A DNA stretch of 64,000 nucleotides from Bacteroidota bacterium (GCA_026416125.1 JAOAFT010000011.1:150-64149); one strand, 5' to 3'. Positions 8,938 to 60,662 are shown, counted from the stretch's first letter. The notes: generated by a model not told the origin, from the letters alone. Numbers and translations are program-made.

Positions 8938-9032
8938 ATCATGTTCCTTTTAAGACGTATACTTTTTCATGGGTTTGTGTATGATGTAATCGTTGATATT
9001 GTTCTCCAGTATATATCCACGATATACAATAC

Positions 9033-10469
9033 TCAGTTCGAGAGGAGTTTTCGAACATCTGTTATTTTTCCGGTAACGGCAGCTGCTGCTGCAATCAACG
9101 GTGATGCGAGTAATGTACGGCCACCTTTCCCTTGTCGGCCTTCGAAGTTTCTATTGCTTGTTGAGACTGCGTACTGTCCGGCGTGAATCTCATCGCCGTT
9201 CATTGCGATACACATTGAGCACCCTGGTTCACGCCACTCGGCACCGGCGGATTTAAAAATCTCGGCAAGTCCTTCTTCTTCTGCCTGACGCTTAACCATG
9301 TATGAACCAGGAACAATGAGCACACGAACACCAGGCGCAACTTTCCTTCCCTTGAAAATCATCGCTGCATCGCGGAGATCTGAAATACGCCCATTTGTAC
9401 AACTTCCGATGAAAACAACGTCTATTTTCTTCCCGAGGAGCTGTTCACCAGGAACAAACCCCATATACTGGAGTGATTTCTCAAATGATTGTCGTTCGTT
9501 GCTATCTTGAATTTTCGATGGATCAGGAATTACCCCGGTAACCGGTATAGCCATTCCTGGATTAGTACCAAATGTAATCATTGGTTCAATTGTTGTAACA
9601 TCGAGCGTAACAGTACGATCGTACTGTGCCCCATCATCGGTTGGAAGAGTCTTCCAATACTCAAGTGCTTCATCCCAATCTTCACCCTTTGGAGCAAATT
9701 CTCTGTTTGCAAGGTACTCAAACGTCACATCATCCGGTGCCATCATGCCTGCCCGCGCTCCACCCTCAATAGACATATTGCATATTGTCATTCGTTCTTC
9801 CATTGTAAGCGATCGAACAACAGGACCAGTGTACTCAATAACATGTCCTGTTCCTCCACCGACACCAATCTTAGCAAGGAGCGCTAGTATAATATCTTTT
9901 GCTGTAACCCCAAACCCTTTTCTGCCATCTAATCGAACTTCCATTGTTTTAGGTTTTCGTTGGAGTAAACATTGAGTGGCAAGCACATGTTCAACTTCAC
10001 TTGTTCCAATACCAAAGGCGAGCGCACCAAAAGCACCATGGGTTGCTGTATGACTATCACCACATACAATTGTCATTCCAGGTTGTGTTAATCCGAGTTC
10101 AGGACCAAAAACATGCACGATTCCCCGTTGTGGATGTTCTCGTCCATATAATCGAAAGCCAAATTCTTTTGCATTCAATTCAATCTGTCGAATTTGCTTT
10201 GCAGCAAGTTCATCCGTAATCGGTACATGAAGCGGCAAGGTTGGAATACTATGATCAATTGTTCCAACAGTCCTATCTGGCCGACGTATTTTAAGTCCTC
10301 GACGCCGTAGTCCATCGAATGCTTGAGGGCTTGTAACCTCATGAAGGAGGTGGAGATCGATGTAAAGAATGGCTGGTGAGTTTGGTTCCTCAACAACAAC
10401 ATGACTTTTCCACACTTTCTCAAAGAGTGTCATTGGTTGCGATGATCCACGATTCATTGGTTGCTCCAT
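9033..10469 (-). CDS. leuC: 3-isopropylmalate dehydratase large subunit
   Basis: 478 aa, aconitase family with Fe-S cysteines (GSCTNGR, CGPCxG-like [10 protein letters not shown]). The start could instead be the ATG at 10457. Confidence 0.95.
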
Positions 10470-44087: not shown

Positions 44088-47000
44088 TCACTTAACAACA
44101 ACGAATTTTCGAACTGCTGAAAAATGGCTTTTCCCATCGACAGTCTGGACATTGAGACGACAAAAGTATACACCGCTACTAAGTACTGTAGTATTCCATT
44201 GAAAGCTATAACGTTGTGGTGGCTGGATAGCATCTACTAAGGTAGCAACCTCACGTCCTAACAGATCATATACTTTTATCGTAACATGGGATTTTATTGG
44301 GATTTCGTAAACGATCGTTGTGGTTGGGTTGAAAGGATTTGGATAATTGAGAAATAACATGTATTCAGCAGGTACTTTGATGCTTGTCTCTTTCTCCACG
44401 CCTACCAAGTATTGATTAATTAGCGCCTCCTCACTCCCGGCCTGGGATTTCCAGGAGTCATACAATTCTGGCCACCAGCGATATAAATCACCTAACGGGT
44501 ATCCACTCATAGCCGCTGTTTTGAGAATACTATTCGTGTATGAAAAATTTTCTTCTAAAGGCCACATATAATTAAAACTATTCTGTACTTTCCAAGCCCA
44601 CAATGTATCAAAACAACTATACCATTTTCCATCGATAAATTTTTTAAGCGCTAGTGTATCAAGTGCAGGACGTACAAAGTTGGGATTATAACTATCATGT
44701 TTAATTAATTCGTTTAATTTTTCAGGTACATCTATGATTAAAGTATTCCCCCACGGCCATGGGTATGTAAGTAAAGAATCCTCAACCCCATTATATATAT
44801 GCTCTTTCCTTATAAAAGGAAATCGTTTGGTCCCATCAGGGTTGCGTGATTCAAAGAACGCTAACGTTTTCCACGAAAACATTGGCTGTGGAAGTGGGAT
44901 TTTAGCTTTTTCATTAAATAGAAATCCTACTTGTGCAGAATTTGACTCAGCCAACATCCATCGAACTAGCCATGGGTCTAGGCTATACGAACAATTGGCA
45001 ACGACGATTCTTCGTTCCTGCTCGGGATTTTCAACTCCTTTAGCCCATTGTGGTAAAAAACCAAAATTCGTGATACTATCAATTCGAAAAACTCCATCTG
45101 GTTCATACTGACCAGTATTGGAATTAAAAACAGTCATACAAGGTATCCACCCATATATCCAACAATTTGCGAATAAAGAATTTGTCACAGCTAACTTATA
45201 CCACCAACCTGATTGGAGCGGGTACATGACAACATTATAAAAGGTACAATGGTTAAATTTGACAACATCTGCATAATTCTCATTTTCCTGGTTTAGAACA
45301 TAGCCAATGTTGGCAAAAGTACAGTTTTCAAATATAAGTGTATCAATATGATGGCCTTCAGATTGATATGGGAACGAAATCGCTCTTCCATAGTACCGTA
45401 AATGTGGATCGACACAATTTTTCCAGTAGCAATTCTTAAATGTACCCCGAAAGTTTCTACATGTAACGGTAATAGCACTAGAAGAAACAGTTGAGACTCC
45501 AAAAAAATCAAGTATAACATTTTCTAAAAAGCACCGGTGAACATTCTGGTCAGTAGTATCCTTGAAAATAATACATGCATATGCTTGATATCCTTCCGTA
45601 AAAGCACAAAATAGCCACACGTTTTTCAATGTTAAATGACCATAACAGCGTATCATTGTAAATGAACCCTTTGATTTATTCGAAAGAAGAATCTGAGGTG
45701 GTGCTGTTTCCTGCGATCTACCTGGATCGGGAGCTATAATTGTGAGATGTTCACCCGGCGGTACTAGAATTTCATTATCGAGAATGTAACGACTATTTAA
45801 CTCAAGTAAAAAAACAGTACGCGAAAGAGCACCGGATATAGTGTTGATGGTGTTAATAACTCGGTTAAGATTTCCAATCCTACCTGTTCTTGAGTCACTC
45901 ACAACTCGTACGGTATCGCTACGATAAGTATTACCAGTCGTAAATCCATAAACAGAAGAATATTCACTTTCACCACTATCATTTTGAGCTCTAACACGCC
46001 AGTAGTATGTAGTAGAAGGAGTTAATGGTAAGAGAGAGAGAACCGTATCAACTACTATCGTATCAATAAAAATTGATCCAGGAGGAAAATGACTAAATGT
46101 AGAAATTTGGACACGATAGGCCTTTGCCGATTCAGAACTTTTCCATATTAATTTAGGATTGATGTCAACATTCGTTGAACCATTTAACGGTAATACAAGA
46201 ACTGGTGTAAACGGTAGTGAACAATAGTAACGAAGCCAACTGACAACTGGTCGTTCTTTCCCACGAGCATCAATTACGTATGTATTTGGATGTGATGCCC
46301 AAACATCGTCGTAATGATATCCCCAAAGAGTAATTCCTTTAACGCCAGGATTATTCCAAAAGAGAGGGAAGTAAATTTTATATTGAGCAACTTGATTTGA
46401 ATCGTTTGGTTCATCAACATCGAATTCGGTGATGTAAACAGGAAGACCTGTTGCAATAAGTCTGTTTAAATTAGTTTTAATAACATTGATGTCATAGATA
46501 TAACTGGGCGTTTTCCCAATGTCGCTCCGAAATTCGAAGTAGTGTCCTTGAATACCAATACCATCAATTAAACCACGTGTTTTCAATAAGTTGATAAGTG
46601 TCAGGTAATTCGTCGTTACCGTATTGCTATGAAGAACATTGTACTCATTGAGTAACAATTTTGTCATTAATGGGTATGCTTTGCGAGCTAGTTGGAATGC
46701 CGTTATAACCCAATCCCACCCTGTGGTCCCATTACCCCCAAGTGCATTCTTATACAGCGGTGGTGCGTTGAATGGCTCATTGACAACATCGACATATGCT
46801 GTTTGGGGGTACCGCTTCGCCACTGTGTCAATCCATCGCTCAATAGCAAGTCTCTGCGCAGACGAATCGAGAGCGGTAATCCACGAGGGTTGCTGTTGTC
46901 CCCAAATAAGAGTGTGTTGTTTAAAGGGAATATTATGTCGTAGTGCAAAAGAATAGATCGAATCCAAATTTGCAAATGAATACTGACCTTGAACGTATTC

Positions 47001-47225
47001 AACAGATCCCCACTTTCCATCATTGCCAGGTGTTATTTGGTTCCAATATACATTGAACCTGCTCCACACTGGGCTTTTTGTTCCAGCACCCAAAAATTTA
47101 CTTTTCCCTGCTGCTAATGGCCTTTGTGCGCATAAATCAACAACAAGACCCACACTCACAAGTCCTACAAAAAACGTACTTTTGATATACCAAATTTGTT
47201 TTGTTAACACCTTATTCACCCCCAT
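44088..47225 (-). CDS. multidomain xylanase: GH10 - Fn3-like - uncharacterised ~510-aa beta-helix-like module - T9SS sorting domain
   Basis: 1045 aa. GH10 at about 46221-47123 (WNQITPGNDGKWG, VVNEPFN, ITEFDV). Fn3-like at about 45936-46208. Unknown module at about 44391-45923, paralogous to the gene at 50669-52582. Sorting domain at 44091-44369. Confidence 0.85.
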   Translation of the reverse strand: MGVNKVLTKQIWYIKSTFFVGLVSVGLVVDLCAQRPLAAGKSKFLGAGTKSPVWSRFNVYWNQITPGNDGKWGSVEYVQGQYSFANLDSIYSFALRHNIPFKQHTLIWGQQQPSWITALDSSAQRLAIERWIDTVAKRYPQTAYVDVVNEPFNAPPLYKNALGGNGTTGWDWVITAFQLARKAYPLMTKLLLNEYNVLHSNTVTTNYLTLINLLKTRGLIDGIGIQGHYFEFRSDIGKTPSYIYDINVIKTNLNRLIATGLPVYITEFDVDEPNDSNQVAQYKIYFPLFWNNPGVKGITLWGYHYDDVWASHPNTYVIDARGKERPVVSWLRYYCSLPFTPVLVLPLNGSTNVDINPKLIWKSSESAKAYRVQISTFSHFPPGSIFIDTIVVDTVLSLLPLTPSTTYYWRVRAQNDSGESEYSSVYGFTTGNTYRSDTVRVVSDSRTGRIGNLNRVINTINTISGALSRTVFLLELNSRYILDNEILVPPGEHLTIIAPDPGRSQETAPPQILLSNKSKGSFTMIRCYGHLTLKNVWLFCAFTEGYQAYACIIFKDTTDQNVHRCFLENVILDFFGVSTVSSSAITVTCRNFRGTFKNCYWKNCVDPHLRYYGRAISFPYQSEGHHIDTLIFENCTFANIGYVLNQENENYADVVKFNHCTFYNVVMYPLQSGWWYKLAVTNSLFANCWIYGWIPCMTVFNSNTGQYEPDGVFRIDSITNFGFLPQWAKGVENPEQERRIVVANCSYSLDPWLVRWMLAESNSAQVGFLFNEKAKIPLPQPMFSWKTLAFFESRNPDGTKRFPFIRKEHIYNGVEDSLLTYPWPWGNTLIIDVPEKLNELIKHDSYNPNFVRPALDTLALKKFIDGKWYSCFDTLWAWKVQNSFNYMWPLEENFSYTNSILKTAAMSGYPLGDLYRWWPELYDSWKSQAGSEEALINQYLVGVEKETSIKVPAEYMLFLNYPNPFNPTTTIVYEIPIKSHVTIKVYDLLGREVATLVDAIQPPQRYSFQWNTTVLSSGVYFCRLNVQTVDGKSHFSAVRKFVVVK

Positions 47226-47299: not shown

Positions 47300-50200
47300 T
47301 TACTTCAACAAGAGGAGTTTCTTCACCGCTGAGAAATTCTTTGCCCCATCAATACTTCGGGCTTCGATCTTGCAGAAATATACACCTGTGCTAAAGTTCG
47401 AAGCATTCCAATGAATAGTGTAACTCCGCGCAGGCTGAACCTCATCAACCAATGTTGCGACAGCTCGACCGAGAATGTCATAGATTGTAATTTTGACATT
47501 CGAAGTCATTGGAATATCATAGTTAATTGCCGTTGTTGGGTTGAATGGGTTCGGGTAATTTTGGCTTAAGGCAAACTCACGTGGAATAACACTTTCAGCT
47601 TCCACGTTGGTTACCGTACCAACATCAATTGGAATACTTGTTGTGTCAATTGTCACATCGTATACACGAAGCCCCTTTACTGTATTCCCTGGAGTCAATG
47701 CAAAGGAAATACAGTTGAAGTTCGTAACAGCTGAATGCGTCGTTACGAAGCTAGCTGCATACGTGTATCCAGGTTTCCAGAGTTTGAAACGTACGGTGGC
47801 TTCCGATTCATTGCGTGTGACCGACAATGCAAAATCATATAACCCTGAATCAGCTATTGCACCTTTTGGCATTTGCTCAAAGTTCCCAAGGGCAACAGCT
47901 CCTTCTGTTTCTGGTGAAAACCAAAGTGCATTTGATACAACACCAATTGAACCAACTGCACCACCCGATGTTCCCCACGTTGGATTTGGATTGTTACCAC
48001 TACGTGGAATTATTAATAACCCAGTATGTGCATTCTCAGCACCTGTCCAACGCGTTGAATCTCCATCACTCGGTGTATTATCAATTACGAGATTACCAAG
48101 TGTAGCATTGAAAATACCTAAACGGAGGCTCGCTGGTGCAGCAAAACCGCTTTCAATTTGACCAGTAATTTTCAATCCACGCTTGATGGTCGGTGTAAAT
48201 GGATCAAATTCACCACGAATTGCTGCAATGTCTGTATTAGGAGCAGTACCAACAATACCAGCACTCCCATCAAAAACACCTTTTTCAAAGAACCAACCAC
48301 CATACCGACTACCAACGATGCCCCAACGAGTGACTAAGTACTTCTGGAATGGCGCCTCTGGAATTGTAATGACACCAGTATCAACTTTCACATCTTCTAC
48401 TGAGAACCCTCGAATTCCCCAGGTGTCACTGTTGATAATTCCAAACGTTACACCATTGAACGTTGGTGGAATAATCGTCGTATCAACAAAACTTCCAGCC
48501 CACCAATAACTAAAGCTCTCTCCCTGAGGCTTGACCAAGAAGAATTTTACTTCTTTTGTGCCATCACTTCGAAGTTGAACCGAAATCGCAAAGTCGTACG
48601 TCCCAGCCTCTGCTATCGATCGATAGGGCACCTGGCGGATAATACCAGTGGAGAGATTGCTCCCATATGTTGAAATCCATGAACTGTTGTTTCGAACAAT
48701 ACCCTGGGTTCCTCCACCACCATTTGCCCAGTTCGGTATATCAAACGTACTGCTTGGCGGACAGAACAAATACCCAGTCCCAGTCTCCTCTCCATCCACT
48801 ACACGCGCAGAATCGGTACCAGCATATCGAACATATCGCCACCGAGCACTGTCCGTCAACGGATTATAAAGTGTTCCAGCATTTGGCAGATTGTTCAATC
48901 CAAATCGCAACCCATTCCACACTGTAATACCAGCACTGTCAAACGTCAACTTCCCAGTAATCTTCAACGACCGACCAGGCTTAATCGTCACTGGCTCAAC
49001 AAATGCACCTCGTATCACATTCCATGTCCCTCGGGGTGGCGCTGACCCAACTAACCCTGCAGATCCATCAAAAGTCCCAGGGACAAATCTCCATGTCGCT
49101 GATAATCCACGTCGCAATACACCCCAATTTGCAATTGGTATGTAATATGCCTCCCATGGCGCCTCTGGAATAACAAGAGGATCACCAAATGTCACTTTCA
49201 CATTAGAAAGGTACAAGCCTCGGAGCTGCCCACGTTCTGCACCATTCCCACCATTAATGCCGAAACACAACCCATTAAACGTTGCTGGTATAATTGTAGT
49301 GTCAATAAACTTCCCTGCCCACCAATAACTAAAGCTCTCACCTTGTGGTTTAACAAGGAAAAATGTGACTTCTTTTGTGCCATTAGCCAGGTGTTGCACT
49401 GAAATTGCAAATTGGTATGTACCCTCCTCAGCAATTGCACGAGAAGGTTTTTGACGAATAATCCCTGTGGAGAGATTATTCCCAAAAGTTGACAACCAAG
49501 AGCTATTTCGAATAACACCCTGGGTTCCTCCACCACCATTTGCCCAGTTCGGTATGTCGAACGTACTACTTGGTGGTACAAACGTGTAACCACCAATAGC
49601 AATCTCTTCTGCATCTACCACTTGAGCACTATCCGTTCCAGGATATTTTACATATCTCCAACGTGCAGAATCGGTTCCAGCATTATAAATAGTCCCTGCT
49701 TGTGTATGATAGGCTAAACCGAATCGCAATGCACTCCAAGTTTCAATACCTGCGCTATCAAAAACCAATGTTCCAGTTACGACGAGTGTTCTTGTTTGAG
49801 GTATTGTGGTTGCGGGGAACTCACCACGAATAACTGTCCACGGTCCATTCGGGGGAGTTGTACCTCTAATTCCAATGGTCCCCGGTGTTGTGCTTGGAAC
49901 TAGCTTCCAATTCGGTGCAGGCCCACGCCTAAAGAAAGCCCAATCGGAAACCATCACTTCTGTCGATGAAATGGTTATATCATCAATATAGATTGTCTCT
50001 ACACTTGCTGCACTCATCCACACTTGAATACCTAAACGTTTAAATGCACCAACATTGGTGAGTGTAGCTTCAATTTCATTCCATTCATTTGCCACAAGTT
50101 GATTGAGGCTTTTCTCTGGCCCATTGTACCATGTCCACCCGGAACCAGATTGCCAGAAAAATTTAATAACACCTGATTTTGATACTAACGAAGCATCAAC

Positions 50201-50479
50201 CCACACCTTTGCTTTTGCAATATATCCTTCCTGTACAATGCTTCCTAACCCATCGTTGGCAAAAATAATTTGCTGCTCACCTTCTTTCGTGGATACTTTT
50301 GCAGATTGTACTCCACTAGCTGCTCTATCCTGGCTCAATTCCATGGGTTGTCCTGAAATCCAACCGCTTGACCAACCACCCATATTCGTCTCGAAGTTCC
50401 AGGATTGTCGTACGAACTGGGCATAGAGAGAACCTACGCACCAACTCACTATCAATAATGTGATTATAAGCTTCTTCAT
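47300..50479 (-). CDS. secreted repeat protein: CBM-like N-domain, three ~260-aa repeats of an unknown domain, T9SS sorting domain
   Basis: The ATG at 50479 has AAGGAGG 7 nt upstream; the tracked start is a TTG. Signal peptide present. The CBM4_9/22-like region (SWNFETNMGGW...IYIDDITI) is followed by the repeats. Sorting domain at 47303-47578. Confidence 0.8.
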   Translation of the reverse strand: MKKLIITLLIVSWCVGSLYAQFVRQSWNFETNMGGWSSGWISGQPMELSQDRAASGVQSAKVSTKEGEQQIIFANDGLGSIVQEGYIAKAKVWVDASLVSKSGVIKFFWQSGSGWTWYNGPEKSLNQLVANEWNEIEATLTNVGAFKRLGIQVWMSAASVETIYIDDITISSTEVMVSDWAFFRRGPAPNWKLVPSTTPGTIGIRGTTPPNGPWTVIRGEFPATTIPQTRTLVVTGTLVFDSAGIETWSALRFGLAYHTQAGTIYNAGTDSARWRYVKYPGTDSAQVVDAEEIAIGGYTFVPPSSTFDIPNWANGGGGTQGVIRNSSWLSTFGNNLSTGIIRQKPSRAIAEEGTYQFAISVQHLANGTKEVTFFLVKPQGESFSYWWAGKFIDTTIIPATFNGLCFGINGGNGAERGQLRGLYLSNVKVTFGDPLVIPEAPWEAYYIPIANWGVLRRGLSATWRFVPGTFDGSAGLVGSAPPRGTWNVIRGAFVEPVTIKPGRSLKITGKLTFDSAGITVWNGLRFGLNNLPNAGTLYNPLTDSARWRYVRYAGTDSARVVDGEETGTGYLFCPPSSTFDIPNWANGGGGTQGIVRNNSSWISTYGSNLSTGIIRQVPYRSIAEAGTYDFAISVQLRSDGTKEVKFFLVKPQGESFSYWWAGSFVDTTIIPPTFNGVTFGIINSDTWGIRGFSVEDVKVDTGVITIPEAPFQKYLVTRWGIVGSRYGGWFFEKGVFDGSAGIVGTAPNTDIAAIRGEFDPFTPTIKRGLKITGQIESGFAAPASLRLGIFNATLGNLVIDNTPSDGDSTRWTGAENAHTGLLIIPRSGNNPNPTWGTSGGAVGSIGVVSNALWFSPETEGAVALGNFEQMPKGAIADSGLYDFALSVTRNESEATVRFKLWKPGYTYAASFVTTHSAVTNFNCISFALTPGNTVKGLRVYDVTIDTTSIPIDVGTVTNVEAESVIPREFALSQNYPNPFNPTTAINYDIPMTSNVKITIYDILGRAVATLVDEVQPARSYTIHWNASNFSTGVYFCKIEARSIDGAKNFSAVKKLLLLK
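47636..49945 (-). repeat. three tandem intragenic repeats (about 49166-49945, 48350-49129, 47636-48328)
   Basis: Repeats 1 and 2 share long identical runs (FDSAGI, TDSARWRYV, GTDSA.VVD, PPSSTFDIPNWANGGGGTQG, LSTGIIRQ, FFLVKPQGESFSYWWAG, DTTIIP.TFNG), and each ends with IPEAP(W/F). Repeat 3 is divergent but collinear. Confidence 0.8.
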
Positions 50480-50623
50480 ACACAATCCTCCTTTTGATGA
50501 ATAACAAATTTGTTAATTATAGTAGTCTCGTATGTATAATTATCACTTTTCTATCTAGACCTATCACCTCCTTTATCGCACACAATAATCCAGATTAACT
50601 TCTGAACTTAAACTCATAGTTCT

Positions 50624-50659
50624 AAGAAGGCCGAGGAGACTGCTCTCCTCGACCTTCTT
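50624..50659 (-). terminator. strong hairpin without U-tract (possible terminator or processing site)
   Basis: Minus strand reads AAGAAGGTCGAGGAGA-gcag-TCTCCTCGGCCTTCTT, a 16-bp stem with one G-U pair. It starts 10 nt after the stop at 50669. Confidence 0.45.
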
Positions 50660-50668
50660 ACACCATTA

Positions 50669-52582
50669 CTATTTCATCAGCACAAACTTTTTCGTTATTT
50701 GAATATTCCCTGCTTTTAGTCTATAGAAGTAAACACCACTCGCTAAATTGTTTGCAGTAAACGTGACTTTGTATTCTGATGGTTCTTGCATTTCATCAAC
50801 TAACGTCGCGACTTCCTGACCTAGTAGTGAGTACACTTTGATTGTTACATGCTCTTTTACAGGAACAGTGTATCGTATTGTTGTAGATGGATTGAACGGA
50901 TTAGGATAATTTTGATATAACTCAAACTGAGCAGGAATTATTGTTCCATCCAGTCTTTCAACCGAAGTAATACCATTGTATAACCAGTTATCAATAGTAG
51001 CATCTTCAGCTGCTTTTTGTGCTAACCACTGTTGATATCTCTGAGGCCACCACCTAAACAGGTCGCCGAGTGGAAATCCACCCATGCCTGCGGTTTGCAA
51101 TGTTGTATTAGTATACGCAAGGTTTTCTGTTAATGGCCATTGCATATATTGACCCTCATATGGTCTCCATGCCCAATTCGTATCACTGTTGTCTACCCAT
51201 TTTCTCTGCATGAATCCCCGAATGAGTGCTGTATCTGTTACAGGTACTAGAAAGTTTGGACAATACATTTCATTTCGTACAAGATTATCGAGCGCTCCAG
51301 TTACTTGTGTTATTTTTCGCCTTCCATCTGGACTCCATGGCCATGGATATGTGAGCATATCCTCATTTAGACCATTGTAAAGATTTCTTCGATTAATGTA
51401 TGGAAATGCTTTCTGACCCGTTGCAGTTACAGAATCGAAAAAGACCTTTGTTTGTGGACTCAACATTGGATGTGGCAATGGAATCATATCAGGTGTACGA
51501 GCACGGAACATTGAATCTGCCCACTTGTTATCAGCTAACATCCATTGGACTAACCATTTTTCCAGCGCATATGCACTATTAGTGAACAATATTCGACGTT
51601 CTTGTTCTGGATCTGAAACCCCTTGAGCCCACCAAGGAGTAAATCCAAAGTTCGAGACGCTATCAATTCTGAAAACTCCACCGTTTGGTTCATATTTTCC
51701 TGTATAATTACTTTTACCGGTCTGTGCTGGCATCCAACCAAACATCCAGCAATTCACAAACAAGCAATTTGTCACTGCAAGTTTATACCACCAACCAGAT
51801 TCCAAAGGGAACATAACAACGTTGAGGAATGTACAATGGTTAAATTTAACATAGTCGTGAAATTCGCCACCTTCCTGCATTAGGACATATCCCATGTTAG
51901 CAAACGTACAGTTTTCGAAAACAACGCTATCGCCATGCCATCCCGTCGTTTGGTATGGGAATGACAATGCACGCCCATAGTATCGTAAGTGTGGATCGAT
52001 ACAATTCTTGAAGTAACAATTTTTAAAAGATCCTTTAAAGTGAGTGCAAGTAACTGTTACTGCTCCTCCAGCATTTGGTGGACATGGACTATAATCAAAA
52101 ATGACATTTTCAAATATACCGTACTGACCGGCTACAGCATTTGGGTCTTCAGCAAAAAGGATAGTTGTTCCTACTTGCTCACCATTCGTATTCGCATACC
52201 GCACCCACAGATTTTTCATTGTTAGATGACCGTTACACTGAATGAGATAACTTCTGTTAACACCTCCTGTTGGTGTCCACACAATTTGGGGAGGGCATGT
52301 TTCAGGAGTATTCCCTGGTTGTGGTGCAATGATTGTTAGTTTTTGACCTGCCGGTACATTCAATGTCCCTACCAAAACATAATAACCACCAAGTTGTAAC
52401 CTAAATGTTGTGTTCGACAAAGTTCCTGCATTAAGAGCTGCTTGAACAGCATCATTGAGTTTTCCTTCGCGCAACTCACCAGTGTTTGGATTCCAGTCAC
52501 TTGGCACATCAACAATCGTCTGTGCAATCAAGAAAACAGGAACTACGATTGACCATAATAAAAGTATACCTCGTTTCTTCAT
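50669..52582 (-). CDS. uncharacterised secreted beta-helix-like protein with T9SS sorting domain, immediately downstream of the TonB-dependent receptor
   Basis: The ATG at 52582 has AGAGGAGAGAG upstream; the tracked GTG at 52621 would overlap the receptor stop. Signal peptide present. Repeated N/C-rich turns (FKNCYFKNC, FENCTFAN, FNHCTFLNV, VTNCLFVNC) are followed by a Trp-rich C-terminal region. Sorting domain at 50672-50926. Confidence 0.8.
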   Translation of the reverse strand: MKKRGILLLWSIVVPVFLIAQTIVDVPSDWNPNTGELREGKLNDAVQAALNAGTLSNTTFRLQLGGYYVLVGTLNVPAGQKLTIIAPQPGNTPETCPPQIVWTPTGGVNRSYLIQCNGHLTMKNLWVRYANTNGEQVGTTILFAEDPNAVAGQYGIFENVIFDYSPCPPNAGGAVTVTCTHFKGSFKNCYFKNCIDPHLRYYGRALSFPYQTTGWHGDSVVFENCTFANMGYVLMQEGGEFHDYVKFNHCTFLNVVMFPLESGWWYKLAVTNCLFVNCWMFGWMPAQTGKSNYTGKYEPNGGVFRIDSVSNFGFTPWWAQGVSDPEQERRILFTNSAYALEKWLVQWMLADNKWADSMFRARTPDMIPLPHPMLSPQTKVFFDSVTATGQKAFPYINRRNLYNGLNEDMLTYPWPWSPDGRRKITQVTGALDNLVRNEMYCPNFLVPVTDTALIRGFMQRKWVDNSDTNWAWRPYEGQYMQWPLTENLAYTNTTLQTAGMGGFPLGDLFRWWPQRYQQWLAQKAAEDATIDNWLYNGITSVERLDGTIIPAQFELYQNYPNPFNPSTTIRYTVPVKEHVTIKVYSLLGQEVATLVDEMQEPSEYKVTFTANNLASGVYFYRLKAGNIQITKKFVLMK

Positions 52583-52617
52583 AGGACTCTCTCCTCTGTA
52601 ATTATTTGTTGAAAAGA

Positions 52618-55600
52618 TCACAGTGAAAAAAGATATCGTATTCCAAGGTTTGCCGTCATACCATAGTATTTTTCCGACGTGAAGCCTTTAATTGTAATCT
52701 GCCTTGAAATATTACTTCGGTCATTAATGTTATTAACATCAAAGAACAACTGCATACCAGGAATGGGGAGCATTTGCCGCATCGAAAAATCCACTCTAAA
52801 GTAATCATCTGTAAATCCATCCTGTTCCGGTTCCGAACCAATGTAGCTCACGGAATTCCCTTGGTATACAAAAGAAAGCCTTGCTGAAAAGCCTTTATAA
52901 TCAAAGCCAATGTATGCGTTGCCAATATCATTCGGTTGATTGATTAAACGTCCTTTACGTGTACTATCAATTTGTGTTGTAACACCAGGTCGGATGGTCT
53001 TTTGGATTATCCAAGGGTACCATGCCTCGGAATTAATACGACTGTAGTTGGCACCAAAAACAATCCCATCAAATGGTGGAGGTAAGAACCAGAATCGGGA
53101 TTGAAGTTCAAATTCAATACCTTTAACGTAAGCAAGTTTGTCATTGTTGATGAATGTATATAACCAAGCACCCGATTTTGGAGGACTCCCTAAATCTGAA
53201 TACGTACCAATTGAATCCATCCATGGACGTGTCGGGCGCGCATAAAGCTGGTACTGCGTGCTATAGGCAAAGTTTTTCACTTGCTTGTAGAATGCTCCAA
53301 CTGTGAACAATCCTATGAGATTACTATGGAACGAAAGAATAACGTCATGGTTATAGGACTGAGCTGGTTTCAAACGTGGGTTTCCGGCCCATACATTTCC
53401 TCGGTCATAACTCATGTGATAGTGCGGTGACAACTGATGGTAATCAGGTCGGGCAAGTGTTTGTGTATACGCGTACCGAATATCAAACCATTCAAATACA
53501 TTGAGCTTCGTTGTAATCATTGGTAACCAAAACTTGTTTGTTGGATACGATTCGACAACTTTATACGTTTGAGCACTTTCATCACGAGCATCTAACAAAT
53601 TATATACTTGATATTTTGCACGAGTTTCTTCATAACGAACACCACCTGTAATCGACGCTATAGTACTGACATTAATATTTGTCATTATGTATCCCGCATA
53701 GTTTCGCTCGATATATGTATAATCATTCGGTAACTTTTGGAAGTACCCCTCAAACCATCCACCAGGTGCTATAGCGCTGGCGTTTCGTGCATTGAATTCA
53801 GGGGTGAGTCGTACGTAATCCACAATAGCATTGAGTAATACCGGATCACATCCCCAAAAGATTCGCCCGAACTTATTCCCTAAAAATGAATTGTACACTT
53901 GCGAAATCTGCGTTGGGAAATTGTACCCCGGAAACATCCCTGAAGCATCGCTTATCAATCCAAACTTTGATTTAATGCTATCCATTAAAGTACGAGTAAT
54001 TGTACCTGGAGTATTGTTGGCACCTGTTGGTGTAAAGTAGGGCGTATTTTGATCGTTGATATTCTTTTTGTGTTCGTAGAGACCACCAAATTTTATATGT
54101 CCAGACACAAATGACCCGAGCGCAAATGGTACCTTAAAGTCACCTTTCAGCGATCGATTCCGTTCCTGGTACTCAGTTCTAAACAAACTCACACTTGTTA
54201 AGTAAACATTCGAATCGCTCCGAAACGTTACAGTCTGCCACAACTGCTCAGGCGGTGTATCATATGGAACTGAACCACTGATAACTCCACCAGTTCGACG
54301 AAATTGATAGTATGGAGAATACGGGAGAAGATTTCGAGAGTATGTGAGTGAAGCACGAAGTTCAGCGGAAATAAATCCAAAATCATTTTTAAACTCTAAC
54401 GAATTCATTCCAAGATCGACTGTATTCTCCCCCTCACGGTATCGAAAATCAAGATTGTTCTCTTTGTAGTTGAAAATCTGGTAGAAGTCTTGGTAGTTCG
54501 ACACCAGTCTACTGAACATGTTGATTGTTTTTATTGTACCGTTTGGGAGTTTATAATCGAGAATTAGATTTGCACCATAACGCTTCCGCTCTTCAAAATG
54601 GCGTTGGAATTGAACATTCGTTACTTGAATTTGTCGGAATCCTGTTGTTCCATATCGTAACGTTCCTGTTGTATAATTTGCATTCATGATGTCTGCATCA
54701 CGATCATATTTTTCGGCGTTAAAAAGAACATACGCACCAAGAACTTCATCATCGAAGAATCTGCTGCTAAGAGATGCTATCGCCCGATAGTTCCCGTAAT
54801 TTCCCGTTTTCTTCGTGTAACCCGATTGCCACATGAGATCAGCCGTAACACCGGAAGGAGCTTCACGAAGTATCATGTTCACATATCCCCCTATAGCATT
54901 TGCATTCATATCTGGCAACAATGTTTTATGAACTTCAATAGTTTTTATCATGTACGGTGTAACCATCGCAAGATCAACACTGCGATCAACGCTAATATTC
55001 CCTGCAGTACCACCTTGTGATGCTGCACCTATCTGTGTACTTCCTGTCGATGCAAGAGGGACACCACTGACGGCCACAATATTAAATTGTGGCGCTAAAC
55101 CTCGAACAACAATCTTGTTTGCCTCACCGGAGCTTTCTGTTGTTGAAATTCCTGGTAAGCGACTTAATGCCTGTGCTGCATTAAAATCAGGTAATTCCTG
55201 AATTCGCTCTTCCGACACAACATTCATAACTGATGTTGCGGATATCTGTTGATTGATTGCTGCTTGCTGACCACGTGCTTGCGCTGTAACAATAACCTCC
55301 TCACCCATAATTGCTTCTGGTACTAAACGAACTTCAAGGGTTACTGTACTATTAGCCACCACTTCTATGTCTCGTAGAACCGGTTGATAACCAATGTACG
55401 AAATACGAAGTCGCGCCTTTCCTGCTGGCACATAGTTCAAAATAAATTCTCCATTTAAATCAGTAGCTGTACCTAAACTCGTGTTGAGTACCAAAATGTT
55501 TGCACCCGGCAATGGATCTCCTGTTGCCTGGTCAAGAACTGAACCGCGAATTCGACCTGAACCTTGAGCATAAAGCCCATACGCAAGAAAAACAAAAAGA

Positions 55601-55650
55601 AATACTACTACCCCCCACATTTTTACGCGTATTGTATTACTCATAACCAT
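52618..55650 (-). CDS. TonB-dependent outer-membrane receptor with N-terminal CarboxypepD_reg-like domain
   Basis: 1010 aa with a signal peptide, CarboxypepD_reg (RIRGSVLDQATGDPLPGANILV...GEF), a plug (NKIVVRGL) and a long beta-barrel. It looks closer to the carbohydrate-type TBDRs of Xanthomonas/Caulobacter than to the SusC/RagA clade; that judgement is by eye only. Confidence 0.9.
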   Translation of the reverse strand: MVMSNTIRVKMWGVVVFLFVFLAYGLYAQGSGRIRGSVLDQATGDPLPGANILVLNTSLGTATDLNGEFILNYVPAGKARLRISYIGYQPVLRDIEVVANSTVTLEVRLVPEAIMGEEVIVTAQARGQQAAINQQISATSVMNVVSEERIQELPDFNAAQALSRLPGISTTESSGEANKIVVRGLAPQFNIVAVSGVPLASTGSTQIGAASQGGTAGNISVDRSVDLAMVTPYMIKTIEVHKTLLPDMNANAIGGYVNMILREAPSGVTADLMWQSGYTKKTGNYGNYRAIASLSSRFFDDEVLGAYVLFNAEKYDRDADIMNANYTTGTLRYGTTGFRQIQVTNVQFQRHFEERKRYGANLILDYKLPNGTIKTINMFSRLVSNYQDFYQIFNYKENNLDFRYREGENTVDLGMNSLEFKNDFGFISAELRASLTYSRNLLPYSPYYQFRRTGGVISGSVPYDTPPEQLWQTVTFRSDSNVYLTSVSLFRTEYQERNRSLKGDFKVPFALGSFVSGHIKFGGLYEHKKNINDQNTPYFTPTGANNTPGTITRTLMDSIKSKFGLISDASGMFPGYNFPTQISQVYNSFLGNKFGRIFWGCDPVLLNAIVDYVRLTPEFNARNASAIAPGGWFEGYFQKLPNDYTYIERNYAGYIMTNINVSTIASITGGVRYEETRAKYQVYNLLDARDESAQTYKVVESYPTNKFWLPMITTKLNVFEWFDIRYAYTQTLARPDYHQLSPHYHMSYDRGNVWAGNPRLKPAQSYNHDVILSFHSNLIGLFTVGAFYKQVKNFAYSTQYQLYARPTRPWMDSIGTYSDLGSPPKSGAWLYTFINNDKLAYVKGIEFELQSRFWFLPPPFDGIVFGANYSRINSEAWYPWIIQKTIRPGVTTQIDSTRKGRLINQPNDIGNAYIGFDYKGFSARLSFVYQGNSVSYIGSEPEQDGFTDDYFRVDFSMRQMLPIPGMQLFFDVNNINDRSNISRQITIKGFTSEKYYGMTANLGIRYLFSL

Positions 55651-55714
55651 ACCTCACACGTTAGAAGTTACACAAATATTTATATCCACTAGTTTTTGTG
55701 ATTTGTTGATATTT

Positions 55715-57070
55715 TTATTTTACATATCTTTTTCTTCGTTCAGTGAGTTCCGTTGTAATGGCTACTTCCATTTGCTTGTTAATTGTATAGAAAAAGAGCG
55801 TTACTGCGCAAAGCGTAAAAGTAATTGCCGGGAAAATACTCATCGTGTTGACAATTCCTTGTAACGCGGTTGCAGTTTGCTCCACATTCGGCACATAACC
55901 ATAGAGCGCCAGAATGTAGCCTGTAATAGCACCTCCAAACCCTAAACCTGCTTTCAATGCAAAAACAATAGCAGAAAAAATAATACCCGTCGCTCGACGA
56001 TAATTCTTCCACTCCGAGTAATCTGCTACATCGGCCATCATGGCCCAAAGTAATGGAATAGTAAAACCGTACACCAATTGACGAAGACACTCTGTTCCTA
56101 TCATAATTTCAACAGCATTTGGAGGAAACAGGTAGAAGAGTACAGTGAAGAACGCTGTACCGAACAACCCTCCAATGAATACATCGCGTTTCCCAAAACG
56201 TACCGCCAAGCGTTTAGAGAAGAGGATCCCCACTATCGTTGAAAGTGTCCCAGCAACATTAAAGATACTAAAGAGATCTTCTCGCCCTACGTAATACTTA
56301 AAGTAGTAAAGCACAACACTTCCTCGCATTGCTAAGGTGATGAAAAGAATGAACGTAAGTACAAACATCGCCACCCACGGACCATTTTTCACAAGGTCTT
56401 TATAATGTTCCTTTACCGTTGCTTTCTGTTCTGGAGGAGGTTGAATTCTTTCCTTCGTTGTAGCAAACGTGATAAAGAAACAAAGTACCGCCACAGCTGA
56501 GAAAATACCAATCGTATATTGGTAACCAATAGCACTATTCCCCTTCCCAAAATAGTGAACCATTGGAAGTGCAAGACCCTGCACAATAAGCTGCGCAATC
56601 ATTGCAAACACAAAACGGTATGACGAGAGACTTGTTCGCTCTCCTAAATCACCTGTCATCACTCCGCTCAAAGCAGAGTATGGGAGATTGTTTGCCGAGT
56701 ATACCATCATCAAGATAATGTATGTAACGTAGGCGTAAATAAGTTTCCCAGTTGGTGAAAAATCTGGTGTTACAAACGTAAGAAATCCCATAATACCAAA
56801 AGGAATGGCAGTCCAGAGAACCCATGGACGGAATTTCCCCCAGCGGGTATTTGTTTTGTCTGCGATAATTCCCATGATGGGATCAAATATAGCATCCCAC
56901 ACCCGAACAATGACAAGTAATGTTCCTGCTGCTACCGCACTGATACCAAAGGTATCAGTGTAAAAAGCAAGTTGGAACATTACCATCGTTTGAAAAATTA
57001 AATTCGCTGCAGTATCGCCAAGAGCATAGCCCACCTTTTCCTTAATGGAAAGTTTTCCTGATGTCTCCAC
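55715..57070 (-). CDS. glycoside-pentoside-hexuronide (GPH) family cation symporter, probable xylo-oligosaccharide importer
   Basis: 451 aa with 12 predicted TM segments and the GPH signature DAIFDPIMGIIADKTNTRWGKFRPW. GTG start with AGAGGAG 6 nt upstream. Confidence 0.9.
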   Translation of the reverse strand: METSGKLSIKEKVGYALGDTAANLIFQTMVMFQLAFYTDTFGISAVAAGTLLVIVRVWDAIFDPIMGIIADKTNTRWGKFRPWVLWTAIPFGIMGFLTFVTPDFSPTGKLIYAYVTYIILMMVYSANNLPYSALSGVMTGDLGERTSLSSYRFVFAMIAQLIVQGLALPMVHYFGKGNSAIGYQYTIGIFSAVAVLCFFITFATTKERIQPPPEQKATVKEHYKDLVKNGPWVAMFVLTFILFITLAMRGSVVLYYFKYYVGREDLFSIFNVAGTLSTIVGILFSKRLAVRFGKRDVFIGGLFGTAFFTVLFYLFPPNAVEIMIGTECLRQLVYGFTIPLLWAMMADVADYSEWKNYRRATGIIFSAIVFALKAGLGFGGAITGYILALYGYVPNVEQTATALQGIVNTMSIFPAITFTLCAVTLFFYTINKQMEVAITTELTERRKRYVK

Positions 57071-57102
57071 GTTTACTCCTCTTGCTTGGTTATATTAACG
57101 AG

Positions 57103-59409
57103 TTACTGTACAAGTAATATTGCCTTTAACAAATCTTCATCACGAGATGACGCGCCAACCATTATTTCAAACTCACCTGGTTCCACTGTCCAATCCATAT
57201 CAATGTTCGTAAAAGCAAGATGGTCCGGTGTTACTTGAAATGATACAGTCTTTGTTTCACCTGGTTCTAGTGTAATACGTTGGAACCCACGCAACTCTTT
57301 AACTGGCCGAGTTACCGAGCTAAAACAATCGTGAATGTATAACTGGACAACTTCATCACCTCGACGTGAACCTGTATTCGTCACATCGACAGAGACTACT
57401 GTCGATTGACCAACTTTAATTATTGGATCTTGTATCTGTAGGTTATTGTATGTGAATGTAGTGTAGCTTAACCCATATCCAAAAGGGTATAGTGGTGTCG
57501 ATTGCTCGTCAAGATACCCACGACGAGCAGAAGGTTTGTAATTGTAATAAATTGGAATTTGTCCTACAGTACGCGGAATTGAAATCGGTAATCGTCCACC
57601 TGGATTATAATCTCCAAACAACACGTCGGCCACCGCACGCCCACCTTCTTGACCAAGGTACCAGCATTCAATAATTGCTTCTGCTTTTTCAGCAATCTCT
57701 GTAATCGAATTCGGTCGACCGTGAAAAAGAACTACAATAACAGGCTTACCGAGAGCAGAAATTGCATTGAATAATTCCATCTGTCGTCCTGGGAGTTCGA
57801 GGTATGCACGATCACCCATGTGTACACGGCTCCATGCTTCTCGTGAAGTCTGTTCATTACCACCTAACACAAGTACAATGATATCTGCGCGCTGTGCTAC
57901 TACGATCGCTTCTTGAATACTTCTCCTATCTTCCTCAACAGTGGGGAAAACTACCTTGTCTTCATTCCATGACCCCCCAACTGTAATTTTACATCCCTCA
58001 CTGTAAAGAACATCAATAACCGAGCCTACCTTTTCTTTAAGTGCTTTGTAAACTGTCGTTGTATACTTCGGTGTCCCACTGTATCCACCTAACATAACAC
58101 GATCGGCATTCGGACCTATCACAGCAAGTGTTTTCAGTCGTTTGGAAGAGAGTGGGAGTATATTACGTTCATTTTTTAAGAGAGTAATCGTTTGGTAGGC
58201 TGCTTTCAATGCGAGGGCTCGTTCACTTTCAAGTGCTTTATCATCATGCACATTTTCACAATGAACGTATGGGTCATCGAACAACCCAAGGAGGAACTTG
58301 CACCAGAGAATTTCACGCACGAGTTCATCAATAAGTACCTCTGCTACTTTTCCTTCCTTTACTAACTGAATGAGAAAAGGATAACAATCCTTATCAGGGA
58401 ATTCTATGTTAACACCAGCTTCAACTGCCTTTTGCGCTGCTTCAGCTTTGCTTGAAGCTATGCGGTGACTTGTTGCTTCTTCACGAAGATGTAGTTCTGT
58501 AATAGCATAGTAATCGGAAACAACCATGCCCCTAAACCCCCATTCGTTTCTTAATACGTCACGCAAGAGCCACTTATTCGCCTGGGATGGTACGCCATCA
58601 ATTTCATTGTACGAAGGCATAACACTCAGCGCCTTCGCTCTTCGAATTGCCTCACGAAATGGATATAGAAATGTATCTCTCAATAGTCTCTCTGAAACGT
58701 TTACAGGCGCACAATTCGTCCCTGATTCCGGTTGACCATGTGCAGCAAAATGTTTTAATGTCGCAATGATATGCTTTTTATCTTTAAATGTTCCATCACC
58801 TTGAAAACCTCTTACTGCTGCAATACCCATTTGTGCTACCAGGTACGGATCCTCACCAAAAGTTTCCTCCACTCGCCCCCAACGAGGATCTCGTGCAACA
58901 TCAACAACCGGTGTTAGTGCTTGATGCGCTCCACGACTCCGAGTATCAGCAGCGATCGATGAGTAAATTTCCTCTACTAATTCAGTATTAAATGTAGCAG
59001 CTAAACCAATTGGCTGTGGATAACTCGTGGCATCTTTCGCAGCAAGCCCATGCAAACACTCTTCGTGAAATATGACTGGTATACCTAAACGGGTTTCTTC
59101 AACAAAAAATCGTTGGATTTCATTCGATAGCTCTACCATTTCCTGAGGACTCAGTCCACCCCCCGTATCACTCAACCGAGCAATTTGCCCCAATCCATGC
59201 TTATATCTCTCGCGAAGAATTTCTCGATTGAGTCTTTTTCCATCAAATAGAACTGTATTTTTCTCACCCCAAATACAGAGCATTTGTGCTACTTTTTCTT
59301 CAAGTGTCATTCGTCCAATAAGGTCAGCAATTCGTTCTTCTATTGATAGTTTGGAGTTCTTGTACTGTGCCTCCTTCAACTTGATTGTATGTCCAGTTAA
59401 AGTACTCAT
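57103..59409 (-). CDS. GH3 beta-xylosidase/beta-glucosidase, cytoplasmic (no signal peptide)
   Basis: The ATG at 59409 has AAAGGAA upstream; the tracked start is a TTG. GH3 N-domain with a nucleophile region (GMVVSDYYA), an alpha/beta sandwich and a C-terminal Fn3-like domain. Confidence 0.9.
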   Translation of the reverse strand: MSTLTGHTIKLKEAQYKNSKLSIEERIADLIGRMTLEEKVAQMLCIWGEKNTVLFDGKRLNREILRERYKHGLGQIARLSDTGGGLSPQEMVELSNEIQRFFVEETRLGIPVIFHEECLHGLAAKDATSYPQPIGLAATFNTELVEEIYSSIAADTRSRGAHQALTPVVDVARDPRWGRVEETFGEDPYLVAQMGIAAVRGFQGDGTFKDKKHIIATLKHFAAHGQPESGTNCAPVNVSERLLRDTFLYPFREAIRRAKALSVMPSYNEIDGVPSQANKWLLRDVLRNEWGFRGMVVSDYYAITELHLREEATSHRIASSKAEAAQKAVEAGVNIEFPDKDCYPFLIQLVKEGKVAEVLIDELVREILWCKFLLGLFDDPYVHCENVHDDKALESERALALKAAYQTITLLKNERNILPLSSKRLKTLAVIGPNADRVMLGGYSGTPKYTTTVYKALKEKVGSVIDVLYSEGCKITVGGSWNEDKVVFPTVEEDRRSIQEAIVVAQRADIIVLVLGGNEQTSREAWSRVHMGDRAYLELPGRQMELFNAISALGKPVIVVLFHGRPNSITEIAEKAEAIIECWYLGQEGGRAVADVLFGDYNPGGRLPISIPRTVGQIPIYYNYKPSARRGYLDEQSTPLYPFGYGLSYTTFTYNNLQIQDPIIKVGQSTVVSVDVTNTGSRRGDEVVQLYIHDCFSSVTRPVKELRGFQRITLEPGETKTVSFQVTPDHLAFTNIDMDWTVEPGEFEIMVGASSRDEDLLKAILLVQ

Positions 59410-59633: not shown

Positions 59634-60458
59634 TTACTTGCATCTACAAATTCGAAAACCTTGATCGGGCCCCTTTCCACTTGGGTCAAAAACACCACGA
59701 AAAGATATTTCGCAACTGAATTCCACTCCCATCCAACCTCCTCCTTTCCAAACTCTACCACTTACCTCACTTGATTGCGCATGTTTAAGATCCCAACACC
59801 ATTCGCGTACATTCCCTGACATATCATATATTCCCAATTCATTAGCATTTTTCTGACCAACACGCTTAGTAGCATTATTATTTCTTTCTATATCAGACCA
59901 CGACCACATACCAGTTAAAAAAGCGATCCCAGAATTTCTCCAGTACCATGCAACTTCCTCAATAATGTTACTCCCACTGTAAATGTACTTTCTGCTCAAT
60001 TGACCTCCACTTGCTGCATACTCCCACTCTATTTCCGTCGGTAATCGATATCCATTTGCACCTTCGTTTATTGTTACTAACCACTTGAGACTATCAGTTT
60101 CACACGTGTTTGTCGAATCTTTAACATTTTTATTAATGATGTAGTACGGAATTAGCCCTTCACGAATACTTCTCCGATTACAATACTCGACACAATCGTA
60201 CCAACTCACCATCTCCACTGGTAAATTATCTCCCCTAAATCTTGATGGGTTTGATCCCATAATTTCCCGCCATTCTCTTTGTGTTACTTCATAACGGCCT
60301 ATGTAGAAATCATGCACGAAATTATTGCTATTAAAGAACTTCGAGTGTGGATTTCTAAATATACCTCCTTGTACTAAAATGAGTTCCTCTGAATCATTGT
60401 GAGAACAACTAACGATTTGGCTAATACCAATAATAACTATTATGTGAAATTTCTTCAT
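59634..60458 (-). CDS. formylglycine-generating-enzyme (SUMF1/FGE) fold lipoprotein
   Basis: ATG at 60458; the tracked start is a GTG. Lipoprotein-like signal ending ..QIVSC. FGE-sulfatase domain motifs YEVTQREW, GYRLPTEIEWEYAA, GNVREWCWD and RGG.W. Confidence 0.8.
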   Translation of the reverse strand: MKKFHIIVIIGISQIVSCSHNDSEELILVQGGIFRNPHSKFFNSNNFVHDFYIGRYEVTQREWREIMGSNPSRFRGDNLPVEMVSWYDCVEYCNRRSIREGLIPYYIINKNVKDSTNTCETDSLKWLVTINEGANGYRLPTEIEWEYAASGGQLSRKYIYSGSNIIEEVAWYWRNSGIAFLTGMWSWSDIERNNNATKRVGQKNANELGIYDMSGNVREWCWDLKHAQSSEVSGRVWKGGGWMGVEFSCEISFRGVFDPSGKGPDQGFRICRCK

Positions 60459-60662
60459 GTATGTAATTTCTTTCACCCTATGGAATAAGAATAATTCTTA
60501 CCAGCATACAATTATACGATATACGAAATTAACGATGACAAAGGGTACCATCACACCTGTTCGCACATTATCTCATCACGATCCGTGTATTTACACATTG
60601 ATCGTGAAGGTTAATTGACACTGTGTAATGCCAACTAACCTTCACATGTCAACGACGTTTTA

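Follow-up and report, generated by a model that had tools for sequence, protein, structure and literature searches.

Prediction of polysaccharide utilization loci (PULs), together with much of glycan-cycling ecology, rests on the susC/susD marker pair. Other arrangements are known: in Bacteroidota, the BtuB–BtuG and XusA–XusB systems each combine a TonB-dependent transporter with a dedicated extracellular capture protein, encoded by the adjacent gene and of a fold other than that of SusD, and the xylan system of Xanthomonas uses TonB-dependent receptors (TBDRs) with symporters of the glycoside-pentoside-hexuronide (GPH) type. The carbohydrate utilization loci containing TBDRs (CUT loci) of Xanthomonas and Caulobacter hold a TBDR, an inner-membrane transporter and degradative enzymes (PMC1790865). 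The nearest published non-canonical PUL is chu_1276–chu_1280 of Cytophaga hutchinsonii, proposed to serve cellulose utilization, where the physical presence of the glycan binder outweighs its binding strength (PMC12016534). In the xylan locus Rmar_1067–1081 of Rhodothermus marinus, a glycoside hydrolase family 10 (GH10) gene with a Por sorting domain and the TBDR gene Rmar_1070 are followed by the hypothetical protein Rmar_1071, which has a Por sorting domain and a terminator predicted after it, and then by the hypothetical proteins Rmar_1072 and Rmar_1073 (sorting domain) and a GH10 gene (PMC6987092, Table 1). Here we analysed a 64,000-nucleotide stretch from a Bacteroidota bacterium (GCA_026416125.1, JAOAFT010000011.1:150-64149; hereafter the window), in which an operon at positions 47,300 to 59,409, within a xylan cluster, has as its core an ancient two-gene cassette: a TIGR01782-type TBDR, followed by a β-helix protein exported via type IX secretion (by the T9SS).

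All genes across the 64-kb window lie on the minus strand. The operon and the gene that follows it are arranged as listed below, in the direction of transcription:

57103–59409, minus strand: GH3, gene 1 of the operon, with Glyco_hydro_3, Glyco_hydro_3_C and Fn3-like domains (Pfam)
55715–57070, minus strand: GPH symporter (MFS_2), after a 32-nt gap from GH3
52618–55650, minus strand: TonB-dependent receptor (TBDR), after a 64-nt gap from the symporter
50669–52582, minus strand: protA, 637 aa, its ATG 35 nt past the TBDR stop codon
50616–50666, minus strand: hairpin directly 3' of the protA stop codon (−34 kcal/mol)
47300–50479, minus strand: protB, 1059 aa
47255–47289, minus strand: intrinsic terminator with a 15-bp stem (8 GC pairs) and a T-run, which closes the operon
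44088–47225, minus strand: GH10 xylanase with an Fn3-like domain, a protA-like module and a T9SS sorting domain, the next gene after the operon

This order, from GH3 to the terminator, had been described in an initial annotation of the same DNA, and it was confirmed for the interval given there.

The receptor does not belong to the SusC family. It scored 329.2 bits against TIGR01782 (TonB-Xanth-Caul; cut-off 310) over residues 117–1008, whereas TIGR04056 (SusC/RagA) gave 88.2 bits against a cut-off of 368.25, in a match confined to residues 34–240, which take in the N-terminal extension and the first part of the plug. The protein's signal peptide ends in AQ, and a CarboxypepD_reg-like N-terminal extension, a Plug domain and the TonB-box-like segment EEVIVTA are present; furthermore, eight partner receptors from related or paralogous loci all fit TIGR01782, and none fits SusC. 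The TBDR is accordingly classed, from its sequence, as a 22-strand-type barrel of the Xanthomonas/Caulobacter subfamily with a Bacteroidota-style N-terminal extension. SusC/SusD membership is ruled out by both family tests, the TIGR04056 score and the search for an adjacent SusD/RagB lipoprotein. No window open reading frame (ORF) of at least 150 aa matched a SusD-family Pfam model, and no SusD gene was seen in the related loci examined, including those of the KSB1 and Marinimicrobia metagenome-assembled genomes (MAGs). With a receptor from outside the SusC family, a locus that lacks SusD is no anomaly on that ground alone; the initial annotation, which had described a SusD-less system, was right about the missing gene. 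Its comparison with Xanthomonas CUT loci holds at the family level. Like those loci, the operon and its surroundings combine a TIGR01782-type receptor, a GPH symporter and a cytoplasmic/periplasmic GH3/xylanase set without SusD. Proteobacterial CUT receptors, however, have neither a CarboxypepD_reg extension nor a conserved extracellular partner gene, and CUT-locus enzymes use the type II secretion system, whereas the enzymes here would use T9SS. The window locus is CUT-type by receptor and symporter, plus a conserved T9SS partner which CUT loci lack.

The pairing of receptor and protA is conserved far outside the window. An exact protein look-up returned five genomic contexts (seven loci, L001–L007), three of them the 4.6-Mb Ignavibacteriales genome CP065001, a Marinimicrobia MAG and a KSB1 MAG; all show the order TBDR, protA, large T9SS protein, with GH10, GH30, GH3, GPH and XylA genes as neighbours. 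A metagenome scan with motifs from the protA core only yielded 80 loci, and the 61 with at least 1 kb of upstream sequence were counted: in 52 of them, protA was immediately preceded by a TBDR ortholog (44–72% identity) in the same orientation. Similarly, seven distant protA paralog lineages (23–27% identity) could be placed on contigs, and all seven had a TBDR (30–41% identity to that of the window) directly upstream. In place of xylanases, the neighbours of these paralogs were GH16, GH57, GH141-like, GH116-like and sulfatase genes, and at other loci GH9, GH29 with SASA and GH94, or a CBM35-bearing partner followed by an SSF transporter.

The background set consisted of 79 genome loci (1.15 Mb) of the Fibrobacterota–Chlorobiota–Bacteroidota (FCB) group, taken from a scan dominated by the sorting-domain motif LxQNYPNPF; for the most part these hold unrelated T9SS cargo, and five belong to the protA family. 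Six full-length receptors of the TBDR's subfamily occurred there, in five loci, and all six were followed by a protA-family ORF. Viewed from the cargo side, 5 of 151 ORFs ending in a sorting domain had a receptor end directly upstream, and four of these five were protA-like (including a gene split over two ORFs, L059); the corresponding figure for other T9SS cargo ORFs was 1/147. Pairwise identities of receptors and partners were correlated (r = 0.87 over 55 non-independent pairs). The pairing is far beyond chance, and receptor and protA behave like a unit, duplicated and diversified together; the synteny counts rule out a fortuitous gene order. Conserved synteny, which the initial annotation had named first among the ways to check its proposal, is therefore present for TBDR and protA (52/61 loci, 5/5 contexts, seven paralog lineages), with protB in third place in 17/27.

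Two loci of the survey showed pairs of other kinds. An uncultured Bacteroidetes MAG (L030) holds two tandem receptor and protA-like pairs (46–1644/2063–3172 and 4518–7361/8144–9538), which suggests that the cassette was duplicated locally. The other locus, L015 from a Chitinophagaceae MAG, encodes a TIGR01782-like receptor that bears a CarboxypepD_reg extension (4276–7071) and, after it, a 1042-aa T9SS protein (7169–10297); this protein, in which no Pfam domain was detected, was rejected as a relative of protA (hhalign probability 0.1), and the two may form a second kind of receptor and T9SS-partner pair.

We then compared the cassette with the systems introduced above. As in PULs with SusC, SusD and the surface glycan-binding protein (SGBP) SGBP-B, a TonB-dependent importer is followed by a ~550-aa, non-catalytic-looking extracellular protein; as in SusC/SusD, the pair has duplicated and diversified together across glycan loci, the next position is taken by non-homologous binding proteins, and the receptor has an N-terminal CarboxypepD_reg-like extension. 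Unlike in SusC/SusD, the receptor barrel is not SusC, and the partner is a β-helix rather than an α-helical protein resembling tetratricopeptide repeats (TPRs); protA is not a lipoprotein but bears a T9SS type-A sorting domain, and its complex with the receptor is putative. With BtuB–BtuG and XusA–XusB the cassette would share the principle of a dedicated extracellular capture protein encoded beside its transporter, and the protA gene is adjacent to, and co-diversifies with, the receptor gene; BtuG and XusB are lipoproteins delivered by the lipoprotein pathway, whereas here the route would be T9SS and the fold a β-helix. The C. hutchinsonii cluster likewise has a TBDT-like predicted outer-membrane barrel and a non-SusD, SGBP-B-like binder with two domains resembling carbohydrate-binding modules (CBMs), but its proteins are unrelated to those described here, it has no β-helix partner, and it belongs to one lineage, whereas the cassette spans several phyla; T9SS is not mentioned for CHU_1279 (PMC12016534). 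The R. marinus locus, in a cultivable organism, has the same layout as the window by listed order and annotation only; unlike the window, it also holds a canonical SusC/SusD pair and an extracytoplasmic function sigma/anti-sigma pair, and in that paper, on GH3 enzymes, Rmar_1071 and its neighbours are treated only as hypothetical proteins (PMC6987092). In the literature we found no description of a TBDR paired with a T9SS β-helix protein other than this table of "hypothetical proteins", in line with the initial annotation, which had called the arrangement an undescribed paradigm; the recurrence of the pairing over several phyla and different glycan loci suggests that it is an as yet undescribed counterpart of the SusC/SusD uptake pair.

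The partner protein, protA, has a signal peptide of the signal peptidase I (SPI) type, cleaved between LIAQ and T, and no lipobox. Its C-terminal T9SS type-A sorting domain (Por_Secre_tail, TIGR04183/PF18962) scored 48.1 bits (cut-off 23). At ~50% identity there are more than 500 homologs, ~580–640 aa long, and those with a named source belong to MAGs of Ignavibacteria, Melioribacteraceae, KSB1, Calditrichaeota and Marinimicrobia; when 1.84 billion representatives were searched with a profile, 570 protA-family clusters (50% identity) were obtained at E ≤ 1e-3. The AlphaFold2 model (50 sequences; predicted local distance difference test score, pLDDT, 89.9) comprises a ~520-aa right-handed β-helix and α/β core, a long helix (residues 513–536), a linker and the Ig-like sorting domain. 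With the full model, Foldseek returned only sorting-domain/Ig-like matches below E = 0.04 in the PDB, the sorting-domain fold matching the T9SS substrate structures 8glk/8glj; among BFVD viral models it returned weak matches to phage pectate-lyase-superfamily and tailspike proteins (template modelling (TM) score ≤ 0.33). Neither fold search gave information on function. The core profile matched nothing among PDB sequences and Pfam except Beta_helix, at 17.1 bits and under the cut-off of 25.9, and no Pfam/NCBIfam model of a carbohydrate-active enzyme (CAZyme) matched. protA is an uncharacterised family. A lipoprotein partner is ruled out by the missing lipobox, and protA has no conserved Cys; the initial annotation was correct in stating that neither protein downstream of the receptor is SusD-like, and that both bear type-A sorting domains (36.4 bits for protB against the same cut-off), which recur throughout the protA and protB families.

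Conservation was analysed in an alignment of 12 xylan-type and 59 distant family members. Columns kept family-wide, among the 59 distant representatives, are the helix's Asn ladder, residues H249 and R329, and a C-terminal motif, W482-P483..Y490..P504-x-G-D-L-x-x-W-x-P513, which lies just N-terminal to the long helix. Two loops that are invariant in the xylan group, DxHLRYYGRALSFPY (196–210) and FENCTFANxGYVxMQEG (222–238), are not conserved among the paralogs of loci for different glycans. The alignment contained no family-wide carboxylate pair; of the candidate catalytic residues, only D507, H249 and R329 are family-wide. The loop motifs vary between glycan loci while the scaffold and the C-terminal motif stay, which we read as a ligand site that changes on an unchanging scaffold, where a constant motif may serve for docking. 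The protA-like module of the downstream GH10 protein (44088–47225) is 49% identical to protA, keeps all xylan-group motifs and shares lineage-specific insertions; the receptor partner appears to have been duplicated recently and recruited onto the enzyme, and the retention of these motifs is expected of a xylan-binding module.

The third gene, protB, encodes the following domains, from the N-terminus:

49964–50416, minus strand: CBM22/CBM4_9-like domain (Mann_GBD_bact in Pfam, and Foldseek)
49151–49954, minus strand: repeat R1, lectin-like β-sandwich
48353–49150, minus strand: repeat R2, lectin-like β-sandwich
47606–48352, minus strand: repeat R3, lectin-like β-sandwich
47303–47557, minus strand: T9SS type-A sorting domain (Por_Secre_tail)

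The signal peptide is cleaved between LYAQ and F; Cys14 lies inside its hydrophobic core and is not conserved among homologs, and there is no lipobox. Signal peptides of the TBDR, protA and protB are all cleaved beside Gln, after AQ, a pattern also seen in most protA and protB homologs of other FCB phyla, and one that agrees with the 'Q-rule' for Bacteroidetes SPI substrates (PMC5837995). The AlphaFold2 model of protB (pLDDT 85) is all-β. Its N-terminal domain scored 30.8 bits against Mann_GBD_bact (cut-off 27) and matched the CBM22 structures 4xup_C, 4xuo and 1dyo in Foldseek (E 1e-9 to 5e-5), with TM (target) of 0.69–0.72 over ~160 superposed columns. The repeats (residues 176–443, 444–709 and 710–958) are 63% (R1/R2), 40% (R2/R3) and 35% (R1/R3) identical, with alignment scores of 195–831 vs 40 ± 7 in shuffles, and Foldseek placed them among CBM16, legume lectins and reelin repeats. 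Among the ~19 detectable homologs (775–1481 aa) no acidic residue is conserved. Given the CBM22-like and lectin-like folds and the lack of conserved acidic residues, protB looks like a multivalent, non-catalytic glycan binder. The initial annotation had called it an unknown triple-repeat T9SS protein; the three repeats and the sorting domain stand, but with a Mann_GBD_bact/CBM22-like N-terminal domain the protein is not wholly unknown.

In receptor-positive loci with enough sequence, the gene 3' of protA always encodes a ~1000-aa T9SS protein, and this is a protB homolog in 17/27. The remaining ten are mutually homologous proteins of similar length (~1000 aa) that combine FG-GAP/VCBS repeats and multiple Fn3-like domains with a sorting domain (L097, L099, L120, L126, L128/L129, L140, L148, L157 and L163). 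They were rejected as protB homologs since only the sorting domain is in common, with the exception of L120, whose protein adds an N-terminal CBM-like domain of the protB type. By analogy, this exchangeable third gene would mirror the variable SGBP position of PULs. The hairpin between protA and protB (50616–50666) had z = −6.6, with 0/200 shuffles equally stable, and lacks a U-tract; it is a possible attenuator or processing site. It could give the receptor–protA pair and protB unequal expression, the canonical terminator lying only past protB.

The genes upstream of the receptor complete a plausible import route. GH3 has its best NCBIfam matches among β-xylosidase/arabinosidase models, with scores under the equivalog cut-offs, and starts MSTLTGHTIK, without a signal peptide; it is predicted to be β-xylosidase-like and cytoplasmic. 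The symporter scored 418 bits against TIGR00792 (cut-off 231) and 338 bits against MFS_2, and is assigned as a GPH-family cation symporter, the inner-membrane importer of oligosaccharides. The operon lies in a xylan cluster of ~33 kb (28.9–61.4 kb), from xylose isomerase at 28872 to GH11 at 61379, with five GH10, GH11, GH30, GH3, GH35, two genes of carbohydrate esterase family 4 (CE4) and xylose isomerase, i.e. co-localised CAZymes for one glycan. The five GH10 genes include four besides the one next to the operon, three of these four with sorting domains; the cluster also holds a NosD/β-helix protein and many more T9SS cargo genes. The first 28 kb of the window hold amino-acid biosynthesis genes. 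No cognate regulator was seen in the 64-kb window; LacI-family genes lie upstream in the related loci L003 and L006. The source is an Ignavibacteria-like member of the FCB group, and the nearest named relatives of both protA and the TBDR are in Ignavibacteria MAGs (56–57% identity). Among paddy-soil MAGs, CAZyme clusters are reported to hold few susCD pairs in Ignavibacteriales and none in Kapabacteria (PMC10576277); the Melioribacter roseus genome has a starch sus operon (PMC3534657), so this lineage is able to make SusD.

Further observations concern the neighbouring genes. In the GH30 glucuronoxylanase-like protein (42050–43960, minus strand), a Por_Secre_tail-like domain with the motif HQNYPNPF occupies residues 91–171, N-terminal to the catalytic domain, and the same arrangement occurs in GH30 ORFs of L159, L161, L140, L148 and L160; a sorting-domain-like Ig fold near the N-terminus cannot serve as a C-terminal T9SS signal. 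A second β-helix protein of ~620 aa (Beta_helix/NosD, Pel9A-like, without sorting domain) is encoded at 30315–32177 (minus strand) and recurs in L001 (16629–18482), L005 (10289–12166) and L175 (14535–16352, where GH141_M was flagged); a GH141-like enzyme is a possible identity. An FGE-sulfatase (formylglycine-generating-enzyme-like) protein is encoded in the interval that separates GH11 from the GH3 operon (59634–60476, minus strand), in a cluster without a sulfatase. At the upstream border of the xylan cluster, 61702–63765 (minus strand) encodes a 687-aa polytopic membrane protein whose central soluble part has, by eye, a GxGxG methyltransferase/spermidine-synthase-like motif; it has no Pfam match and was not counted as a component of the system.

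We propose, with a probability of roughly 0.55, that T9SS delivers protA to the surface as a glycan-binding partner of the receptor, and that protB is an SGBP-like xylan binder. The T9SS-secreted GH10, GH11, GH30 and CE4 enzymes, recognised by their domains, would cut xylan extracellularly, and protB and the protA-like module on GH10 would, as their folds suggest, hold the polymer at the surface. protA would stay on the cell surface once its sorting domain is processed, bind xylo-oligosaccharides via the variable loop face and hand them to the adjacent receptor in a SusD/SGBP-A-like manner, as the synteny, the co-divergence and the conservation pattern suggest. From what is known of these families, the receptor would import the oligosaccharides, the GPH symporter would pass them to the cytoplasm, and the signal-less GH3 would free xylose for XylA. 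The hybrid architecture of TBDR and T9SS proteins put forward in the initial annotation is supported by conserved synteny, with surface anchoring, glycan capture and protA–receptor contact as putative features.

Several points weigh against this proposal. In 9 of the 61 metagenome loci protA has no receptor upstream and stands beside GH10, GH30 or other cargo genes, and its module is also fused to GH10; the module can apparently work without the receptor, and protA is thus not an obligate receptor subunit. Identity of ~50% across phyla and invariant D/H/R/Y/E residues in the loops would be equally typical of an enzyme. Any two genes of one pathway that are inherited together would likewise show operon conservation and co-divergence, and type-A T9SS cargo can be released rather than anchored. 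TIGR01782 receptors of Proteobacteria function partnerless in CUT loci (PMC1790865). Lastly, the cassette need not replace SusCD, because the similar layout of R. marinus adjoins a canonical SusC/SusD pair (PMC6987092).

The first two of these points lead to a different reading of protA, as a new β-helix carbohydrate-active enzyme (a glycosidase, an esterase or a lyase-like protein), T9SS-secreted or surface-bound, which trims polymer for the co-encoded receptor, its adjacency reflecting co-regulation. The modelled fold would belong to the pectate-lyase-superfamily class, conservation is high, with D196, H198, R200, Y201, Y202, R204, E223 and E237 invariant in the xylan group, and both the joining of a protA-like module to a GH10 catalytic domain, as in bifunctional xylanases, and the nine receptor-free copies adjoining GH10 or GH30 genes would suit an enzyme. 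We regard this reading as a serious rival, given the strongly conserved polar residues of the xylan group, but as less likely than a binding partner. protA matches neither CAZyme models in Pfam/NCBIfam nor PDB sequences; its candidate catalytic residues are not kept in paralogs, where no carboxylate pair is conserved, and the paralog loci target neutral glycans of differing linkage, which variable binding fits better than shared catalysis. Furthermore, the near-universal place directly 3' of the receptor is unusual for PUL enzymes.

That position bears equally on the idea that protA and protB are free or surface-located glycan-binding or adhesion proteins without a specific relation to the receptor, the gene order being that of an inherited operon. 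The CBM22-like fold of protB, the protA module appended to GH10 and the many other T9SS cargo genes of the cluster agree with such a role, but the adjacency persists in paralog lineages in which all other locus genes have changed, every sampled receptor of the subfamily is followed by a protA-like gene, and only one of 147 other background T9SS cargo ORFs has a receptor upstream; we judge this improbable. Least of all do we expect protA to serve the receptor without binding glycan, whether by shielding the surface from phage or bacteriocin, by aiding assembly or by signalling; only the tight pairing and the family-wide C-terminal motif could be cited for this, whereas the variable loop face changes with the type of glycan that a locus serves, one paralog bears a CBM35, and the xylan-type module was recruited onto a xylanase.

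In the light of the preferred reading, protA as a surface glycan-binding partner of the receptor, the locus is one of transporter-centred glycan utilization with an extracellular partner, and what is new is the uncharacterised partner family and its unexpected delivery route. We tentatively suggest, at somewhat less than even odds, that the cassette is a second, SusD-independent glycan-uptake complex, in which a T9SS-delivered capture subunit docks on a Xanthomonas/Caulobacter-type barrel, and that it has radiated over many glycans in the FCB group as an unrecognised PUL class. If true, this radiation spans Ignavibacteria, KSB1, Calditrichota, Marinimicrobia and their relatives in the FCB group, for which PUL prediction from susCD yields little; the groups affected are common in sediments, soils, bioreactors and the ocean, and in these phyla the conserved cassette would serve as a new genomic marker of loci for glycan uptake. 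R. marinus, if Rmar_1071 is homologous to protA, would provide a cultivable model and would show that the cassette is able to coexist with SusCD. T9SS would possibly supply accessory subunits of transporters, beyond enzymes and adhesins, and in this large uncharacterised family (570 clusters at 50% identity) the variable face may encode glycan specificity.

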